A stretch of 11,801 nucleotides of DNA, taken from an uncultured Gammaproteobacteria bacterium (GTDB taxonomy: Bacteria > Pseudomonadota > Gammaproteobacteria > UBA9214). The translations under genes were made by a program, and so were the position numbers. This document shows positions 4,127 through 11,542 of this stretch, piece by piece. Each line of letters opens with the position of its first letter. Position 1 is the first letter of the stretch. Location of the stretch: assembly GCA_963827755.1 (NCBI GenBank), contig CAWHCQ010000024.1, positions 1 to 11,801 on the forward strand. Reading direction: 5' to 3'. Below the pieces are notes generated by a model, which saw nothing but the letters and a program-made list of their open reading frames with translations, searched no databases and was not told where the DNA came from.

Positions 4127-4694
4127 ATGCTGCAATGGCTGTGGATGATTGTCGCTTTCAGCACGCCCGGCATCCTCGCTGCCGCGGAGGCTGATTCACG
4201 CCAGGCCGGAATACAAGCTCTACCCCGAAGCCCCGGACTTCACGGTCCAGCCACGCGATAAAGAACTGCAATTCCGCGATTGTTCTCGTTGCCACGAGGA
4301 AGAGGACATCGATCCTGAACCCCGCCGGCTGAGGACGCGGCATGTGCGCGAGATCGATCATGGCGGCAACAGGTTCTGGTGCCTGACCTGCCATGCCGGC
4401 GACAACATCGATTATCTGCGCACATCGAATAACGAGAAAATTGAATTCGGGCAGTCTTACCTCATCTGCGGGTCCTGCCACGCCGATCGCCAGAAGGACT
4501 GGTATTTCGGTGCCCATGGCAAGCGGGTGAGCGGCTGGCAGGATGAACGGGTCATCCTCGCCTGTACCCACTGCCATGACCCCCACAAACCGGCCGTCAC
4601 TCCACGGGCACCCAAGGCACGTCCACCGGTTCGCGTCGGGCTGGAAAGGCAGGAGCATCATCCCCCCGCGGCAACGAGGACGTGGGACCGTTAA
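4127..4694 (+). CDS. Periplasmic tetraheme c-type cytochrome, apparently frameshifted after the signal peptide
   Basis: Four CxxCH motifs (CSRCH, CLTCH, CGSCH, CTHCH) lie in the 4149-4694 frame. A signal-peptide-like segment MLQWLWMIVAFSTPGILAAAEADS starts at ATG 4127 (SD AGGGG 4114-4118) in a different frame that stops at 4259-4261. Confidence 0.8.
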
Positions 4695-4719
4695 CCGGCA
4701 CGCAAGCGGAGCATGCACC

Positions 4720-5658
4720 ATGGCAGGCAAACAAGACACCAAAAACAAACCTGAAACGATTGACCATTACCGCCGGGCGTTCCTCAAGCGACTTGGAGTC
4801 ACTACGGCTGCGACTGTCGGCGCCACTTCTGCCCATGGCGCATGGGGCGGCAAGACGCTGGGCGATACCTTTGCCGATTTTTTCCAGCAACACTATCAGC
4901 GGATGACGCCGGAGGAACTGCAGGAGACGCTGGAGAGGATCGAACGCAAGGCGAAACGGCAATATGGAACAGCGATCAGCTGTACCGACACGCCTCCCCT
5001 GGAGGGTGTGATTTTCGGTTACGCCATCAATATTTCGAAGTGCAAGGGCTATCGTGACTGTGTCGAGGCCTGCGCAGTTGAAAATAATCTGGGACCTGAT
5101 ATTCGCTACATCCATGTCCTGGAAATGGATGAAGGCAGTACCAACCTGGAGCTGGCTGATCGCTATTACGAACATGAAACAGTTCCCGTGGAGGGAAAAT
5201 ACTATATGCCTGTACAGTGCATGCAGTGCGACGACCCGCCCTGCGTCAAGGCATGCCCGGTTGAGGCAACCTGGATGGAATCCGATGGCATCGTCGTGGT
5301 TGACTACGACTGGTGTATTGGATGTCGTTACTGCATGTCGGCCTGTCCCTATTCGGCGCGCTTTTTCAACTGGACCCGGCCTGATATTCCTGCCGACAGA
5401 ATCAACCCGAATACCAACTATCTCGGCAACCGGCCGCGACCGGTCGGTGTCGTGGAGAAGTGCCACTTCTGTACCCAGCGCACCCGCAAGGGGCGACAGC
5501 CGGCCTGCCAGGAGGCCTGTCCGACGGGTGCGCGCGTCTTCGGTAATTTACTCGATCCGAACAGCGAGATCCGCTATGTGCTCGAGCACAAGGCAGTTTT
5601 CCGCTTGAAGGAGGATCTGGGCACGGAACCCAAGTTCTGGTACTACGCTGACCGCTGA
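4720..5658 (+). CDS. Tat-exported 4Fe-4S multicluster protein (NrfC/DsrO/QrcC/PsrB family)
   Basis: ATG 4720 with GGAG SD at 4708-4711. Twin-arginine motif YRRAFLKR. Four ferredoxin Cys groups: CKGYRDCVEAC, CMQCDDPPCVKACP, CIGCRYCMSACP and CHFC...CQEACP. Family-typical C-terminus LGTEPKFWY. 312 aa. Confidence 0.92.
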   Translation: MAGKQDTKNKPETIDHYRRAFLKRLGVTTAATVGATSAHGAWGGKTLGDTFADFFQQHYQRMTPEELQETLERIERKAKRQYGTAISCTDTPPLEGVIFGYAINISKCKGYRDCVEACAVENNLGPDIRYIHVLEMDEGSTNLELADRYYEHETVPVEGKYYMPVQCMQCDDPPCVKACPVEATWMESDGIVVVDYDWCIGCRYCMSACPYSARFFNWTRPDIPADRINPNTNYLGNRPRPVGVVEKCHFCTQRTRKGRQPACQEACPTGARVFGNLLDPNSEIRYVLEHKAVFRLKEDLGTEPKFWYYADR

Positions 5659-5668
5659 GGGATAGTCC

Positions 5669-6941
5669 ATGGCCTTGCTACTGTTTTTTCGCGACGTCTT
5701 CAGGGAGTTATTCCGGGGTTCATTGCATTTACTGGGCATGGATCGTGTTCCTGTGGGCAATCATTGCCCTGGGCGGCTGGAAATATATCGGCCAGCTCAA
5801 TAACGGCCTTGTCGTCACCAATATGAGCAACCAGGTCTCCTGGGGCTTTTATATATCGAATTTCACCTTTCTGGTCGGGGTGGCCGCGGCGGCGGTCATG
5901 CTGGTGATTCCCGCCTATATCTTCGACCGCAAGGACATCCGCGATGTCGTCCTGCTGGGTGACACCATGGCCGTGACGGCGGTGTTCATGGCAATGCTGT
6001 TCGTTATTGTCGACATTGGCCGGCCCGACCGCCTCTGGCACATGATCCCGCTGATCGGCAGCTTCAATTTTCCCGCTTCGCTGCTGGCCTGGGATGTCGT
6101 CGTACTGAGCGGTTACCTGCTGCTCAACCTGGGTATCTCCTTCTACCTTCTGTTCAGCCACTACCAGGGCCATGAGGCAAAGCTGAAGGCATACCTGCCC
6201 TTTATCATGCTCGCCATCTTCTGGGCCATATCGATCCACACCGTCACGGCCTTTCTGTATTCGGCGAATACGGGCCGGCCCTTCTGGCACAATGCGCTGC
6301 TGGCGCCGCGCTTCATCGCCTCGGCATTCTGTTCCGGTCCGGCGATTGCCATCCTCATCCTGCAAATTGTACGCAAGCTCGCCGGCTATCCGGTGCGGCA
6401 GAGCGCAATCGACACCCTGCGCGTCACCATGACCGTGTCGCTGCAGATTACGCTGTTTTTTGTGGTCGCCGAGCTGTTTACAGACTTCTACTCCGAAGGC
6501 GCACATTCCGCCTCGGCTCACTACCTGTTCTTCGGCCTGCACGGGGCAGCCAAGCTGACACCATGGATCTGGACCGCACTGGCACTGCTCGTGATTGCCG
6601 TGACTATCCTGATGATCCATAACCTGCGGCGCAATCCGCTCTTGTTCAATATTGCCTGCGTACTGACTGTGGTCGGCGTATGGATCGAAAAAGGCATGGG
6701 GCTGGTGATCCCCGGTTACATCCCGACGCCCCTTGGTGAAATATTCGAATACCTTCCGAATTCGACCGAGGTGATGATCAGCCTGGGAATCCTCGCCATC
6801 GGCCTGCTGACATTTACCCTGTTAGCCAAGGCGGGCATGGCCGTTGAGCGGGGTCAGGTAAGCCTGCGCGACGACATCGAGGAAGAACTGGCGGGCCTGA
6901 CCAGCGAGGAGGAAAGTAAACCCGTGCACACCACCGGGTGA
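5669..6941 (+). CDS. NrfD/PsrC/DsrP-family quinone-interacting membrane protein, apparently frameshifted near codon 20
   Basis: Multi-TM protein with family motifs GLVVTNMSNQVSWGFYISNFTFLVGVAAAA, DIGRPDRLWH, SLLAWD, SIHTVTAFL and GVWIEKG. The likely true start is ATG 5669 (SD GAGGG) in another frame; see findings. Confidence 0.9.
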
Positions 6942-6980: not shown

Positions 6981-7745
6981 TCAGGGCTTCTTGATACCCT
7001 TTGCAGCTTTCAGATCAGTACCGCGCAGATTCGCCTTGCGAATGTCCGTGCCGTGCATGTCAGCCTTGCTCACATTTGCCTTGGTCAAACGCGAATTGCG
7101 CAGGTTCGCCCCGCTCAGATTGGCGCCGCTCAGGTTCACCTTGCGCAAATCGGCACTGTGAAGATTGGCCTTGCGCAAATCGGCGCCGTGAAGACTGGCC
7201 CTGCGCATCTTTGCCTTGCGCAAGTCGGTTTTGCGCAAATCCGCCTTGTCTAATTGCGCCCCGCACAGATCCGCCCTTTTCAGACCCGCGCCGACAAGCC
7301 GGGCTTTGGTAAGGTTTGCATCGCTCAGGTCCGCGTCATCGAGATAGGCACCGCTGAGTACCGCTGCGGAAAGGTTCGCCGTCTCCAGAACCGCTTTGCG
7401 GAAGTCCGTTGAGCGAAGGTCTGCCCTGGTCAACACGGCATCGGTGAGATCCGCGCCACGTACATTCGCCTCGCGCAGATCTGCGTCCGAGAGATCGGCG
7501 CCGCGAAGATTCGCATCCCTGAGATCGGCATTCCTGAGGCTTGCGCCGCGCAGGTCCGCACCCTCAAGATCCATGCTGCCGAGGTCCATCCCGTCCAGCT
7601 CGGCATGGCAAAGCTCCGGTATCACGCCCGGATGGTTTTTCCGCCATTCATGCCAGACGCCGCTGCCCTGTTCAAGAACACTGATATGTTCCTGATTGGC
7701 CGTTGCAATATTTTCCCCGGAGATGTCCGGCTGTTCAGTAAGCAT
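6981..7745 (-). CDS. Pentapeptide repeat-containing protein
   Basis: About 200 aa of tandem A(D/N)Lxx repeats after an ANQEH...QG...WHEWRKNHP N-terminal cap. A GGGAG SD precedes ATG 7745. Confidence 0.93.
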   Translation of the reverse strand: MLTEQPDISGENIATANQEHISVLEQGSGVWHEWRKNHPGVIPELCHAELDGMDLGSMDLEGADLRGASLRNADLRDANLRGADLSDADLREANVRGADLTDAVLTRADLRSTDFRKAVLETANLSAAVLSGAYLDDADLSDANLTKARLVGAGLKRADLCGAQLDKADLRKTDLRKAKMRRASLHGADLRKANLHSADLRKVNLSGANLSGANLRNSRLTKANVSKADMHGTDIRKANLRGTDLKAAKGIKKP

Positions 7746-7887
7746 ATTTCTCCCATCCCGATTCCATCATATTCAAGCGGCCCGTCCTGGCAAAACCTGC
7801 GAGAAGGCCGGTATATTCAACCGGGTAGATTGTTATCTTACGCCCGGCCTCACCTGGTTAACATACCAGGGACTTTGCAAGCAAATT

Positions 7888-7901
7888 GCATGTTAACATG
7901 C
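7888..7901. promoter_or_regulatory. Perfect 14-bp palindrome, candidate transcription factor site in a divergent intergenic region
   Basis: GCATGTTAACATGC is its own reverse complement and lies between the divergent pentapeptide and START-domain genes. Confidence 0.35.
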
Positions 7902-8064
7902 GCTTTCTTCCATGTATAAAGGGAAAAACAGGTGGTACAAAATGCCCGGGGTCAGCGAGGCCCGATTTCGTCGCTTGATAAAGGCCTTTACCCTGTATAT
8001 TGCGACCAGTGCAGGCAACAGCACCTGTACCGCAAATATTATTAACCCCTGACGAACGTGATCC

Positions 8065-8499
8065 GTGCACTATACCGATTCCAGGCAGCTACCTTATCCA
8101 TGCCGACAGGTGTTCGATGTGGTCGCCGATATCGAGCGCTACCCCGAGTTTCTACCCGGCTGGACACAAGCGCGGATACTGCGGAGGAATGACAACTGCC
8201 TGTATGCCGAGCAGCAGCTGCAGACGGGACCTGCCGTGTTTCACTTTCACTCCACGGCACGGCTGCAACCCTGCAGCGGTATTCACATAAGTGCAAATGA
8301 TGGTCCCTTCCGCGAACTGGATATCGACTGGCGCTTTACCGAATCGGACGAATACCACTGCACGGTGACGCTGGATCTCGTGCTGGCCATGAGACCCGGA
8401 CTGATCAACAGTGCCTTGAAGATGATGCTGGAAACCGGCAGCAGCCAGCTGCTGCCGTTGTTCGAGCGCCGCGCCCGAATGCTGTATTCACAAACCTGA
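8065..8499 (+). CDS. Coq10/RatA(PasT)-family START/SRPBCC domain protein
   Basis: 144 aa with LPYPCRQVFDVVADIERYPEFLPGW, GPFRELDIDWRF and C-terminal FERRARMLY, all hallmarks of Coq10/RatA. GTG start with a weak SD. Confidence 0.88.
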   Translation: MHYTDSRQLPYPCRQVFDVVADIERYPEFLPGWTQARILRRNDNCLYAEQQLQTGPAVFHFHSTARLQPCSGIHISANDGPFRELDIDWRFTESDEYHCTVTLDLVLAMRPGLINSALKMMLETGSSQLLPLFERRARMLYSQT

Positions 8500-8657
8500 C
8501 AGGCGAATTGTCAGTTACTGCAGGTTCCTGCAGAAAAAATGTGTTTTTTTTCCGGGCGGATTGCAATAGGATAAAGCCACTCTGCCATTCGCAGCCGAAT
8601 GATCTGACTCAGCACTGCGCAGGGTTAATCCACTGTCATTACTACCCGGGGGAAACT

Positions 8658-9221
8658 ATGCAATCACAGGAAATTACCGAAGAGATGATCTTCCAATGCT
8701 TCGCGGCGGCTCAACAGTCCGAGCAATCCGATAAAACCGCGGAATCATTCGTTGACGTGGAAGAGTATGAGAACCAGATCATGTACCCTGAATTTGCCCG
8801 CTGGGCAAAACAGGCCGGTTACCCACAGCTGGCCACGCTGTTCCGCAAGGTAGCCGGTGAGGAAAAACTGCATGCCGTGTGGCTACGAGCCCTCTATGAA
8901 GATATAGGTGTACCGCAACGTGGTGAAGATACCCGGCGCGCAATCGACGCACTCAACACCATTCGTGCCAACTGCGATGAACTGATCGCGATGAATCCGG
9001 ACGGCGTGGTCGAAAAAGCACTGAGTGTCGCTATTCGGGTGGAAGAGCGCGAATACATGGACATCTATCCACGTTTCCGTGACCAGGCACTGGCCGATGG
9101 AAATACCAGGGCGGCAGAGGTCTACCAGAGAGTCATTGATTCCGAGCAGGAGCATGCGCAGTGGTTTACTGCTGCGTTAAGTGATTTCCGCTCGGGCGCG
9201 ATGGTGCCGGCATCCGCCTGA
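8658..9221 (+). CDS. Ferritin-like diiron protein of the rubrerythrin group, symerythrin-like, with no rubredoxin domain
   Basis: ATG 8658 follows a G-rich SD; 187 aa. Two homologous halves, VEEYENQIMYPEFA...EEKLH and VEEREYMDIYPRFR...SEQEH, each ExxE-x30-ExxH. No CxxC rubredoxin motifs. Confidence 0.85.
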   Translation: MQSQEITEEMIFQCFAAAQQSEQSDKTAESFVDVEEYENQIMYPEFARWAKQAGYPQLATLFRKVAGEEKLHAVWLRALYEDIGVPQRGEDTRRAIDALNTIRANCDELIAMNPDGVVEKALSVAIRVEEREYMDIYPRFRDQALADGNTRAAEVYQRVIDSEQEHAQWFTAALSDFRSGAMVPASA

Positions 9222-9240
9222 ATAGCTAGTTCATTTTCGT

Positions 9241-10104
9241 TTGCATAATTTCGCAAACGCGCAACAACAAGCCGGGTGGCGGCAGGCACTTAACCCCCCC
9301 ATCTACCTGGTGTCGGTGCTGCCCGGCCTCGGGGTGTTGTTAATCGCGGGAGATACTCCGCTTTGGCTTGCGGGCCTGGTGCCTGCTACGCTTGCCGTGG
9401 TCCTGCTGCAGCATGCGATCAATCTCCTGAACGACGTCAGTGACTGGCGCCTGGGTGCGGACACCGAAAAGTTCGACTCCTGGGTCAGGGCACATGGCGA
9501 AGACACCCGCCTTGCATCATTGCACGGGCTGGTCAGTGCACTGGCCGGAACATTACTGGGCACAGGTTTGCTGGCCTGGTCCGGCAGACTCTGGATACTG
9601 CTGATCGCTGTGCCCATGGTGGTGCTCGGCTATCTCTACAATGCCGGACCCCGGCCGCTGTCGTACACCTTTCTGGGGGAATGGGTCACCGGCCTGTGCT
9701 ATGGCCCCGGCGTATTCGGCTGCCTGTGGCTGCTGGCGGGTCTGCAGATACAGCCGGCGACGGGTCTGGGAGCACTGGCCTTCGCTGCACTGGCGATGGC
9801 GCTGCTGCTGTCTCATCAACCGCCCCAGATCGAAACCGATCGCGCTGCGGGCAAACACTCCTTTGCCGTGCGCTATGGTGCACTACGTACCTACCAGGCC
9901 GCGCGGTGGCTTGCAGTCCTGTTTCTTGTCAGTACGGGTGTCGGCATCGGTTTCGGTGAAAATACTGCATTGACTGTCACTGTCTTTGCAATGACCGGCC
10001 TGGCCAGCGTCGTCTTTTTCTGGAGGTCGCAGCCGAATCCCGGGCATATCCTGTTACCTTCGGCGGGTGTCATCGTCGCAAGCCTGCTAGCAAGCATGAT
10101 GTGA
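9241..10104 (+). CDS. UbiA-superfamily prenyltransferase, MenA-like
   Basis: Multi-TM 287 aa. First Asp-rich motif NLLNDVSDWRLGAD, GYLYNAGPRPLSYTFLGE, and second motif QIETDRAAGKHSFAVRYG. TTG start 19 nt after the upstream stop, with a weak SD. Confidence 0.87.
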   Translation: MHNFANAQQQAGWRQALNPPIYLVSVLPGLGVLLIAGDTPLWLAGLVPATLAVVLLQHAINLLNDVSDWRLGADTEKFDSWVRAHGEDTRLASLHGLVSALAGTLLGTGLLAWSGRLWILLIAVPMVVLGYLYNAGPRPLSYTFLGEWVTGLCYGPGVFGCLWLLAGLQIQPATGLGALAFAALAMALLLSHQPPQIETDRAAGKHSFAVRYGALRTYQAARWLAVLFLVSTGVGIGFGENTALTVTVFAMTGLASVVFFWRSQPNPGHILLPSAGVIVASLLASMM

Positions 10105-10215
10105 TGGATTTTGCCCGGTCTCCTCACATGGTTGAGTTAATCTTCAAATCGAGATTATGATAAAATTACGCAGGTAACGGGCGTTCCCCGGTTACTGTCA
10201 TCAGGGAGTAAAATC

Positions 10216-10449
10216 GTGAAAACACTTGCTCAAGTTTTGTTCTGGTTCGGTATTGTCTCCATCCCCCTTTCCTGGATCGCATGGTTCATTGCCCCGGAAA
10301 TAGGGAGGGAAGTCATGGCAGGAATCTCCGACCCCGCTCTTCGTGCTGTGATGGAGGAGGCACATCGCGAGCGCTGGGGCATTTACGTTGGCCACTGGCC
10401 ACCGACGATGCTCATCCTCAGCTATATCCTGGACAAGAAAGCGGGTTGA
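10216..10449 (+). CDS. Small membrane protein of unknown function (77 aa)
   Basis: GGGAG SD before GTG. Two hydrophobic segments and a conserved-looking ERWGIYVGHWPPTMLIL motif. A strong hairpin follows the stop. Confidence 0.75.
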   Translation: MKTLAQVLFWFGIVSIPLSWIAWFIAPEIGREVMAGISDPALRAVMEEAHRERWGIYVGHWPPTMLILSYILDKKAG

Positions 10450-10455
10450 CGATTG

Positions 10456-10479
10456 CTTCGCGGGCAATTGCCCGCGAAG
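10456..10479. terminator. Perfect 24-bp palindrome/hairpin just after the small-protein stop (possible terminator or 3' stabiliser)
   Basis: CTTCGCGGGCAATTGCCCGCGAAG is self-complementary and starts 6 nt after the TGA. It has no U-tract. Confidence 0.45.
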
Positions 10480-10834
10480 ACTGCAAAACCACTGCGGCAG
10501 GCCGCCTGTCATGTCGCTTGCGGGTATCGCCAGGCCGGCAAAATCTGTATGCAGGGATAAACACCCTGCGTGGCAGTTTTTTATCTTTTCTGTTCCATTG
10601 GTTTATACCCTGCCCTGTTGGTATTTCCTTCTCCAGTGCGGTAACCCGGGATGTTCCCGTCATCCTCCCGGGGAAATACTGACGCTCTCGGCACGGCCTG
10701 ACTTACACCTCGAACCGGCAGCATCTGCTGCCAAAAACAGCCGGTACATCTCATAATGCAAATACATTTGGCAGCCCGTACAACAACGACTGCTATTTAC
10801 ACAATAGCCACACACATCCACCACGGAAGGCGGG

Positions 10835-11383
10835 ATGCGCTATCAGAACAGGCAAACAGGCGGCTTCACCCTGCTGGAATTACTGGTCACCCTGACTGTT
10901 GCCATAACGCTGACCCTCGGCGCTGCCAGCAGCCTCAGCTGGCTCCTCCAGGAAACCCGCATGGTCGCAGACATCAACCGCTTTGTCAGCGCATTGCAGC
11001 TTGCCCGCAACGAGTCGGTCACGCATGCGCGCAAAATCGTACTCTGCCCGAGCGCGGACGGCGAAAATTGCGGCAACAGCAGCGAGTGGAACAGCGGCTG
11101 GATACTGTTCCAGAGTGACGACAGGGAATACGATGCAAATGAACGGCTGATCCGGCGCGGCGCTGCCCTGCAGTCCGGCATCAGGCTGAATGCCAGCAAC
11201 CATCGCAAGCGGATCGTCTACCAGCAGAATGGCAGCAGCGGCGGGAGCAACAGCTCGTTCACCTTCTGTGACAGCCGGAAAAAAGCAAAACCCAGGACCA
11301 TCTGCCTCTCCAACACCGGTCGCCCGCGCCTTAGCCGGAGGCGCTGCAACGGCAAGCCGATCGACTGTTCATCCATGATATAG
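10835..11383 (+). CDS. fimT: FimT/GspH-family type IV minor pilin
   Basis: Prepilin cleavage site G|FTLLELL with E5, followed by LQLARNESV, IVLCPS, WNSGWILF, SFTFCD and a basic C-terminal GRPR. Confidence 0.9.
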   Translation: MRYQNRQTGGFTLLELLVTLTVAITLTLGAASSLSWLLQETRMVADINRFVSALQLARNESVTHARKIVLCPSADGENCGNSSEWNSGWILFQSDDREYDANERLIRRGAALQSGIRLNASNHRKRIVYQQNGSSGGSNSSFTFCDSRKKAKPRTICLSNTGRPRLSRRRCNGKPIDCSSMI

Positions 11384-11466: not shown

Positions 11467-11542
11467 TCCCCGGTAGCTCAGTTGGTAGAGCGGGTGACTG
11501 TTAATCACTAGGTCGGCGGTTCGAGCCCGTCCCGGGGAGCCA
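11467..11542 (+). tRNA. tRNA-Asn(GTT)
   Basis: TCCCCGG acceptor stem pairs with CCGGGGA. D-arm GCTC/GAGC, anticodon loop CTGTTAA, T-loop TTCGAGC, encoded CCA; 76 nt. Confidence 0.98.

Follow-up and report, generated by a model that had tools for sequence, protein, structure and literature searches.

The stretch analysed here, hereafter the window, comprises 11,801 nucleotides (nt) from contig C24 of an uncultured gammaproteobacterial genome (52 contigs, 2.85 Mb, rated 92% complete). On its + strand it carries a gene for a symerythrin-like diiron protein (8658–9221), followed after 19 nt by a gene for a MenA-related protein of the UbiA superfamily (9241–10104), which we call prenyltransferase-like (PT-like). 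A preliminary description, made from the sequence of the window, had placed these two genes in a candidate four-gene cassette that could act on an unusual quinone, together with a Coq10-like START gene upstream (8065–8499) and a small gene downstream (10216–10449). The conserved unit is the diiron/PT-like pair and not the four-gene cassette. We give about an even chance to the reading that the pair is a module for a prenylated quinone-type membrane lipid, neither ubiquinone nor ordinary menaquinone, in which the diiron protein would act as a ring oxygenase.

The genome scan, with one genome per species, yielded 80 loci with a homolog of the diiron protein (67–95% identity), in Chromatiales-type, Ectothiorhodospiraceae, Porticoccaceae, Methylococcaceae, Thiobacillaceae and other records. 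Cultured carriers include Porticoccus litoralis DSM 25064 (L005), and Methylococcus sp. EFPC2 is another candidate. In 66 of these loci, one of them weak (L065), the diiron gene is immediately followed by the PT-like gene; the remaining 14 include two that are cut by the contig end and 12 that have room but no PT-like gene. In the reverse scan, which was centred on PT-like genes in metagenome contigs, 71 of 80 loci have a co-oriented diiron gene immediately upstream, while six of the other nine had no upstream room and three had room but no diiron gene. Thus, the linkage of the two genes across genera, which the preliminary description had suggested looking for, is present. The surroundings of the pair vary: in the 106 loci where a simple open reading frame (ORF) caller finds the pair adjacent, the upstream neighbours fall into 23 recurrent families and 31 singletons, and the downstream ones into 21 families and 36 singletons.

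The two genes also occur together. Among 400 evenly sampled genomes of the class (one further genome was unscored), the same six carry both, and the genes are adjacent in all six, with the diiron match being partial in one (G057); another genome of the same genus (G367, 98% complete) has neither gene. Five of the 12 genomes with an unlinked diiron gene were tested, and in all five the PT-like gene is still present, at a site flanked by pepN and an FKBP gene; in one of the five (G403), a second diiron paralog lies directly upstream of it. Moreover, pairwise identity in the diiron protein tracks that in the PT-like protein (41 loci, r = 0.77), a correlation that none of 999 permutations reached. 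Both co-location and co-occurrence are direct observations, and they bear on the simplest alternative, that four unrelated genes happen to lie side by side. The START gene and the small gene are indeed absent from most related loci, and promoter- and terminator-like sites are not clearly above shuffled expectation. For the core pair, however, chance adjacency is excluded, as the genes stay together amid dozens of different flanks, the same genomes carry both, and both are retained where the linkage is lost; applied to the four genes at large, the idea is barely credible.

The diiron protein matches PF02915 (Rubrerythrin) with 64.6 bits at a cut-off of 22.8. Its best solved relative is symerythrin 3qhb (E 6.7e-23, residues 15–176, about 31% identity). 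The AlphaFold model, with a predicted local distance difference test (pLDDT) score of 92.3, superimposes on 3qhb with template modelling (TM) scores of 0.85/0.89 and a root-mean-square deviation of 2.4 Å, whereas for other rubrerythrins (nigerythrin, rubrerythrin) the TM score is at most 0.63; the label "symerythrin-like" given in the preliminary description is therefore apt. Its calls of the START, diiron and UbiA families hold as well, at 87.9, 64.6 and 76.9 bits in Pfam. The relatives, which are 67–95% identical, come from Gamma- and Betaproteobacteria, and the mean column identity of a 51-member alignment is 78%. Eight residues in ExxE/ExxH arrangement (E35, E38, E69, H72, E129, E132, E163, H166) are invariant in all 51 sequences, and we take them to be the metal ligands by analogy with symerythrin. 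F15 and V128 are likewise unchanged throughout and correspond to a Phe and a Val in 3qhb, presumably the sites of the symerythrin Val–Phe cross-link; Cooley et al. are said to have found that symerythrin makes this cross-link itself. We know of no function or physiological substrate assigned to symerythrin. A signal-like N-terminus is absent, and the protein is predicted to be cytoplasmic. It has no match to PF03232 in Pfam and so is not placed in the Coq7 family. A search for fusions in longer proteins, which is weak evidence, returned a single protein of 330 amino acids (aa) with the diiron protein as query, and nothing with the PT-like protein.

Some further observations concern the diiron family. 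Two cysteines, C14 and C106, are invariant across the 51 members; C106 stands opposite a non-Cys residue in symerythrin and C14 is outside the aligned stretch, and the two may form a family-specific thiol or disulfide feature. One genome (G403) has two diiron paralogs: the 52% identical one (L094:903-1439) is directly upstream of the PT-like gene, and the other, 79% identical to that of the window, lies near a molybdopterin/iron–sulfur (FeS)/NrfD and rhodanese cluster. In addition, a contig filed under a Halobacteria archaeon metagenome-assembled genome (MAG) (L075) encodes a diiron protein 95% identical to that of the window over 135 residues, which most likely reflects misbinning rather than an archaeal copy.

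The PT-like protein belongs to PF01040 (UbiA, 76.9 bits in Pfam), and all MenA and UbiA models of NCBIfam score below their cut-offs. The best match is TIGR02235 (91.8 bits, cut-off 225); NF004751 scores 68.9 (cut-off 264) and TIGR00751 menA 48.6 (cut-off 102.15). The model (pLDDT 92.7) has the UbiA fold, with TM scores of 0.59–0.69 to AfUbiA, ApUbiA, UBIAD1 and digeranylgeranylglyceryl phosphate (DGGGP) synthase, and a search of the ESM Atlas gave generic UbiA clusters only. The first Asp-rich motif, N-D-x-x-D-W-x-x-G-A-D (N64, D65, D68, G72, D74), is invariant in 44 sequences. The second reads S-H-Q-P-P-Q-x-x-x-D, as compared with N-N-x-R-D-x-x-x-D in canonical MenA and N-N-T-R-D-M-E-S-D in human UBIAD1. 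These family and motif states were read directly from the proteins.

For a phylogeny, 19 PT-like members were combined with three canonical MenA proteins (above the cut-off), five canonical UbiA proteins and five presumed heme O synthases. The UbiA and heme O synthase sequences came from carrier genomes; four of the latter were the second-best matches of the UbiA search, and only the copy from the window's own genome was checked. In the resulting tree, a quick maximum-likelihood one as the careful search was unfinished, the PT-like family is a single clade on a long branch, with a support of 94 in the Shimodaira–Hasegawa-like approximate likelihood ratio test (SH-aLRT), and groups with MenA, away from UbiA and heme O synthase, with a split support of 100. 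Hence "MenA-like", as the protein had been called, describes a resemblance, since MenA models match best and the clade lies beside MenA, but not membership, as all cut-offs are missed.

To find partners of the pair, we clustered ORFs from all 160 loci. A methyltransferase gene of the UbiE/COQ5 family is present in 16 loci. In 11 of them it comes next after the PT-like gene, co-oriented with it and either overlapping it or starting about 10 nt further on; two more have it immediately downstream in convergent orientation, and one has it upstream and divergent. Three of the linked proteins exceed the TIGR01934 MenG/MenH/UbiE cut-off (250–255 against 158 bits), and two exceed a UbiE equivalog cut-off. 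Two genomes (G414 and G415) have a linked copy, at 239 bits, besides their canonical UbiE (337 and 297 bits). In a Bacteriovoracaceae MAG (L076), the order is UbiE-like (divergent), diiron, PT-like and polyprenyl synthetase genes, the start of the last overlapping the stop of the PT-like gene; this synthetase is nearest to long-chain synthases, below their cut-offs. In the same MAG, whose completeness is not given, no canonical UbiA, canonical MenA, UbiD or MqnA/D was detected, and the best MenB match was 113 bits against a cut-off of 342.7, so that the pair may be the only quinone pathway of this one genome. The preliminary description had left it open whether the genes make, modify or redox-cycle an unusual quinone. 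UbiE/MenG-type methyltransferases and a polyprenyl synthase as partners favour the making of a quinone-type lipid over pure redox cycling. On one metagenome contig (L168:5242-8517), diiron, PT-like and UbiE-like genes are followed on the same strand by a second PT-like/UbiA-family gene (PF01040, 82.5 bits).

The genome of the window encodes ubiC followed by ubiA, heme O synthase, Coq7 (on C13), two UbiH-type hydroxylases and UbiE, the only canonical copy of which is on C21. At 92% completeness, it has no match to MqnA/D (PF02621), and its best MenB match is 42.9 bits against a cut-off of 342.7. Judging from this gene content, the host apparently makes ubiquinone and not menaquinone, and the statement that the window does not hold a standard menaquinone operon is supported by the host genome at large. 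Across 18 genomes bearing the pair, canonical UbiA is present in 17 and canonical MenA in three. Therefore, the PT-like protein is an extra prenyltransferase, neither that of ubiquinone nor that of menaquinone synthesis. We also considered the pair as a missing ubiquinone hydroxylase, which was rejected, given that the genome has Coq7 and two UbiH-type enzymes. The ubiA gene of this genome (on C17, L082:1209-2079), downstream of ubiC, is read as two frames that overlap, with a single TGA inside. Either the assembly is wrong here or the frameshift is genuine; in the latter case, the PT-like gene would gain weight.

These data bear on the possibility that the PT-like protein is simply MenA. It would then prenylate 1,4-dihydroxy-2-naphthoate (DHNA) that is either taken up from the sediment community or produced by genes that escaped detection, and UbiE would convert the product into (demethyl)menaquinone, with the diiron protein being accessory or unrelated. 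MenA models are the best NCBIfam matches, the family joins canonical MenA with a split support of 100, and a PT-like gene followed by a UbiE-type one, as in 11 loci, recalls the last two steps of menaquinone synthesis, which are carried out by MenA and then a MenG/UbiE-type methyltransferase. However, the scores are far under the cut-offs (48.6 against 102.15 and 91.8 against 225 bits), and the family forms a separate long-branch clade with a changed second motif. Nor does the genome, 92% complete, have MenB above the cut-off or MqnA/D. Canonical MenA coexists with the PT-like protein in three of the 18 carriers, and therefore the two are not interchangeable, while the near-obligate diiron partner is left unexplained. 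We consider this explanation improbable.

On the reading that we favour, the module would work as follows, with head group, sequence of steps, chemistry and product all inferred. The PT-like enzyme would attach a polyprenyl chain to an aromatic head group by means of its intact first Asp-rich motif. The soluble diiron protein would hydroxylate the ring with O2, taking the role of Coq7 from an unrelated ferritin-like branch; alternatively, its step may be in the preparation of the head group. A UbiE/MenG-type C-methyltransferase would methylate the quinol, this being a dedicated copy in some lineages; in the genome of the window, the task would have to fall to the single canonical ubiE. The START paralog of the window (8065–8499) would bind or chaperone the lipid, and the product would serve quinone-reactive modules of the types seen beside the pair, that is, NrfD/DsrP-type, Nqr, Mtr-like and NosZ-associated ones. 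A more specific version, to which we hold only tentatively and clearly short of an even chance, is an undescribed branch of isoprenoid quinones, in which a diiron oxygenase of symerythrin type would act with a prenyltransferase from the MenA side, its second metal motif changed, to make a second, non-ubiquinone quinone in ubiquinone-producing sediment bacteria. The redox potential of such a quinone may differ from that of ubiquinone.

Several points weigh against this reading. No head group, and no pathway for one, was identified. Among the components of quinone clusters, the window itself contains PT-like, diiron and START genes only, and the START gene, 158 nt from the diiron gene, may be transcribed on its own. 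Methyltransferase genes are linked in only 16 of the 160 loci and a polyprenyl synthase gene in one. In all 44 PT-like sequences, Q196 replaces the first Asp of the second motif, D200 being kept; in UbiA enzymes this Asp binds Mg2+ and diphosphate, and therefore the protein may follow a different chemistry or be impaired in prenyl transfer. Rubrerythrin-type proteins, the closest characterised relatives of the diiron protein, act as peroxidases, and hhalign of the diiron family with the genome's own Coq7 gave a probability of 3.5%, with no relation seen. The counts of linked loci overstate the number of independent events, because the loci are related to each other. Finally, 12 of the 80 genome loci have the diiron gene apart from the PT-like gene, and in four of these (L008, L016, L020, L059) it comes directly after a DsrP-like NrfD gene, so that a redox role fits as well.

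Such a role would be that of redox protection. The diiron protein would be an H2O2 or O2 reductase, and the PT-like protein its quinol-binding membrane partner without the normal prenyl-diphosphate chemistry; as a two-part quinol peroxidase or oxidase, they would protect the quinone pool or keep it poised. This agrees with the rubrerythrin family of the diiron protein, with the altered second Asp-rich motif in 44 of 44 PT-like sequences, with the unlinked diiron genes after NrfD/DsrP-like genes, and with the far stronger conservation of the diiron protein than of the PT-like one (median identity of 72% against 50% over 41 loci). In Porticoccus loci, moreover, the pair is found among peroxide-stress-type genes (nitroreductase, pirin, DoxX, LysR, YaaA). 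On the other hand, the UbiE/MenG-type methyltransferase gene tightly coupled in 11 loci and the polyprenyl-diphosphate synthase gene of L076 are biosynthetic partners, and the PT-like protein keeps its first Asp-rich motif and many polar residues of the membrane part without exception, as an enzyme would. In addition, we know of no UbiA-fold protein that serves as a redox anchor. Overall, we find redox protection rather unlikely, though less so than the PT-like protein being simply MenA.

The respiratory genes near the pair are of interest for both redox protection and the quinone-type lipid that we favour. NrfD-type, FeS, molybdopterin or multihaem modules, or nqr genes, are present in 33 of the 80 genome loci. 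In Thiobacillus-type loci, FeS, NrfD and multihaem cytochrome genes are followed by the pair on the same strand, and in metagenome loci MtrC/MtrB-like genes and NosZ-plus-cytochrome genes precede it. Thus, the quinone-reactive context noted for the window recurs elsewhere, with NrfD-type and Nqr modules nearby. As these loci are relatives that share synteny, the enrichment is suggestive only.

In the window, the respiratory module occupies 4149–6941 on the + strand and consists of genes for a cytochrome c, a DsrO-like FeS protein and a DsrP-like NrfD protein, the last two assigned with NCBIfam. The NrfD module reported upstream of the pair is indeed present: the DsrP-like protein (5745–6941) scores 390 bits at a cut-off of 350, and the DsrO-like protein 192 bits, just under the cut-off of 200. 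The c-type cytochrome has four CXXCH motifs, as counted in the translation, while DsrJ is a trihaem protein. The module follows an aminotransferase gene and stands alone, with no dsrMK in the window.

The START protein (144 aa, + strand, GTG start) matches PF03364 (Polyketide_cyc) with 87.9 bits at a cut-off of 23.4 in Pfam. A homolog is present in six of the 80 genome loci and eight of the 80 metagenome loci, and three arrangements are seen: the START gene precedes the pair in the same orientation, as it does in the window, follows it in that orientation (L141, L142, L146, L150), or follows it in the opposite one (e.g., L003, L004, L007, L101, L102). The separate canonical ratA that the preliminary description had proposed to look for in the host was found on C37 beside rnfH, bamE and fur. 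Its product is 27.5% identical to the window START protein and scores 150.3 bits against NF007999 RatA, also below the cut-off of 258, as compared with 64.3 bits for the window protein. The window gene as the RatA of the genome was therefore rejected. When a profile of pair-linked START proteins was run on 401 genomes, the top three matches (223, 218 and 192 bits) were exactly the pair-adjacent ones, with the next at 150. Of the five other pair-bearing genomes of the sample, the START gene is adjacent in two, present as a weaker copy elsewhere in one, and represented by a RatA-level match only in the remaining two. By these scores and positions, the window START gene is a dedicated paralog specific to the pair and linked to it in some lineages only. 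The Coq10-like member of the proposed cassette thus stands insofar as the paralog recurs by the pair in several lineages, but it is found in a minority of the loci and sometimes on the opposite strand.

The small gene (10216–10449, + strand, GTG start) encodes 77 aa with a hydrophobic N-terminal segment and has no match in Pfam or NCBIfam. Compared with seven homologs, its differences at codon positions 1/2/3 are, for example, 5/4/23 and 10/4/33, and as they fall mainly at the third position, the ORF is a real gene. Among the 160 loci, homologs occur in L001–L004, L012 and L100–L102 only, and in L002 and L012 they are about 3.6 kb from the pair; the homolog in L002 (8530–8760) has an in-frame stop at codon 10. 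The gene is lineage-restricted, being confined to near relatives, and its membership in the module is doubtful. With the START gene so sparsely linked as well, the four-gene cassette does not hold as a unit.

As to gene layout, the ORF listing gives four + strand ORFs, at 8065–8499, 8508–9221, 9241–10104 and 10216–10449, so that the co-oriented genes described before are real, as are the gaps of 158, 19 and 111 nt when the second gene is taken from 8658. The latter is the likely start of the diiron gene (187 aa, ATG), as 64 of 70 related loci have ATG at the corresponding codon; the PT-like gene (287 aa) starts with TTG. A scan of 7600–10900 found three promoter-like sites against 2.1 expected and six terminator-like sites against 2.9 expected. 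A hairpin with a T run at 10548–10582 (+ strand), found by consensus scan, may mark the end of the transcription unit, and it is weak evidence because of this number of terminator-like sites in the region. The scan is not informative on operon structure. The spacer between the START and diiron genes contains, at 8510–8560, a short palindrome (CTGCAG..CTGCAG) followed by A and T runs, which the terminator scan did not flag, and a DNA contig from one sequencing run (X1) is without 10 bases at 8518.

Contigs from three RNA libraries of two studies span 8590–8967, within the diiron gene, and 9215–9465, which takes in the final 7 nt of the diiron gene, the spacer and a 5' portion of the PT-like gene. 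No RNA contig bridges the diiron/PT-like junction with 31 letters on either side, and such libraries can contain DNA. The START and 77-aa genes have no cover in these libraries, which is uninformative for their expression. Half or more of the sampled words are found in five sequencing runs. All five are metagenomes of sediment or marine sediment; they come from four studies, and one is perhaps the source sample.

Other features of the window include a pentapeptide-repeat gene (6981–7745, − strand, 254 aa) between the NrfD module and the START gene, homologs of which (63–80% identity) hold the same position in L003, L004, L101 and L102. When Rfam was applied to the whole window, two tRNAs alone reached the family threshold, tRNA-Val(GAC) at 397–473 (− strand) and tRNA-Asn(GTT) at 11467–11542 (+ strand), and 7700–10700 had no match.

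We propose that what is new here is a module of isoprenoid-quinone type with an unprecedented diiron partner and a variant MenA-side prenyltransferase, although an earlier description may exist. A full-text literature search, with supplements and most subscription papers outside its scope, found no description of the diiron/PT-like pair and no relevant match for symerythrin together with a prenyltransferase, or for rubrerythrin together with a menaquinone or UbiA prenyltransferase. Accessible text among the papers found for ferritin-like proteins, UbiA and quinones mentions only Coq7 and alternative oxidase (AOX). A near-obligate prenyltransferase partner, with a lineage-specific methyltransferase, side-chain synthase and START protein, turns the "function unknown" of symerythrin, a diiron protein of well-characterised structure and remarkable self-oxidation, into a testable hypothesis. 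If true, it would provide the first physiological substrate or biological role for the symerythrin family, and a new entry on the short list of bacterial respiratory quinones, lately extended by methyl-plastoquinone. A further possibility is that it accounts for the way in which sediment-dwelling sulfur oxidisers, methanotrophs and hydrocarbon degraders with ubiquinone only run respiratory modules that are served elsewhere by other quinones. In addition, the altered second Asp-rich motif is of interest to the enzymology of the UbiA superfamily.

The nearest parallels as pathways are Mpq, Plq and RquA, which concern methyl-plastoquinone, plastoquinone and rhodoquinone, respectively. As in the module proposed here, an extra or variant quinone is made with a UbiA-superfamily prenyltransferase and a UbiE-like methyltransferase. 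The Mpq cluster comprises a ubiA-type prenyltransferase, a ubiC-like lyase, a radical-SAM methyltransferase and a ubiE-like methyltransferase, and the accessible text of its description mentions no diiron protein (PMC11874023). In the Plq system, PlqH is a flavin monooxygenase, going by the portion of the text that is accessible (PMC12998194). Unlike the pair, neither Mpq nor Plq, as far as these portions go, uses a MenA-side prenyltransferase or a symerythrin-like protein.

For the individual proteins, the comparison is as follows. Symerythrin of Cyanophora paradoxa (3QHB/3SID), given in the accessible part of its source as the product of the glaucophyte plastid gene rbrA (PMC6330054), shares with the diiron protein a full-length match, the lack of a rubredoxin domain and the paired ExxE...ExxH motifs. 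In contrast, the family of the window is proteobacterial, has the additional invariant C14 and C106, and is genetically tied to a membrane prenyltransferase. Like the diiron protein, Coq7 is a small ferritin-like diiron protein, acts in a prenyl-quinone pathway and is the working analogy for the proposed ring hydroxylation, but the window protein is outside PF03232, and the genome carries Coq7 separately on C13. Coq10, which binds isoprenoid quinones, and RatA have the same PF03364 domain and length as the START protein; the latter, at 27.5% identity to canonical RatA, belongs to a subclade of its own beside the diiron/PT-like pair. Finally, MenA and UBIAD1 share with the PT-like protein the UbiA fold and the first motif N-D-x-x-D-x-x-x-G-x-D, and a central G-P-R-P-L-S-Y-T..G-E block aligns, like this motif, with canonical MenA of carrier genomes. 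The PT-like family differs from them in its scores below the cut-offs, its separate long-branch clade and its changed second motif, and from MenA also in that its gene occurs in genomes without a detected DHNA pathway and is almost always preceded by the diiron gene.

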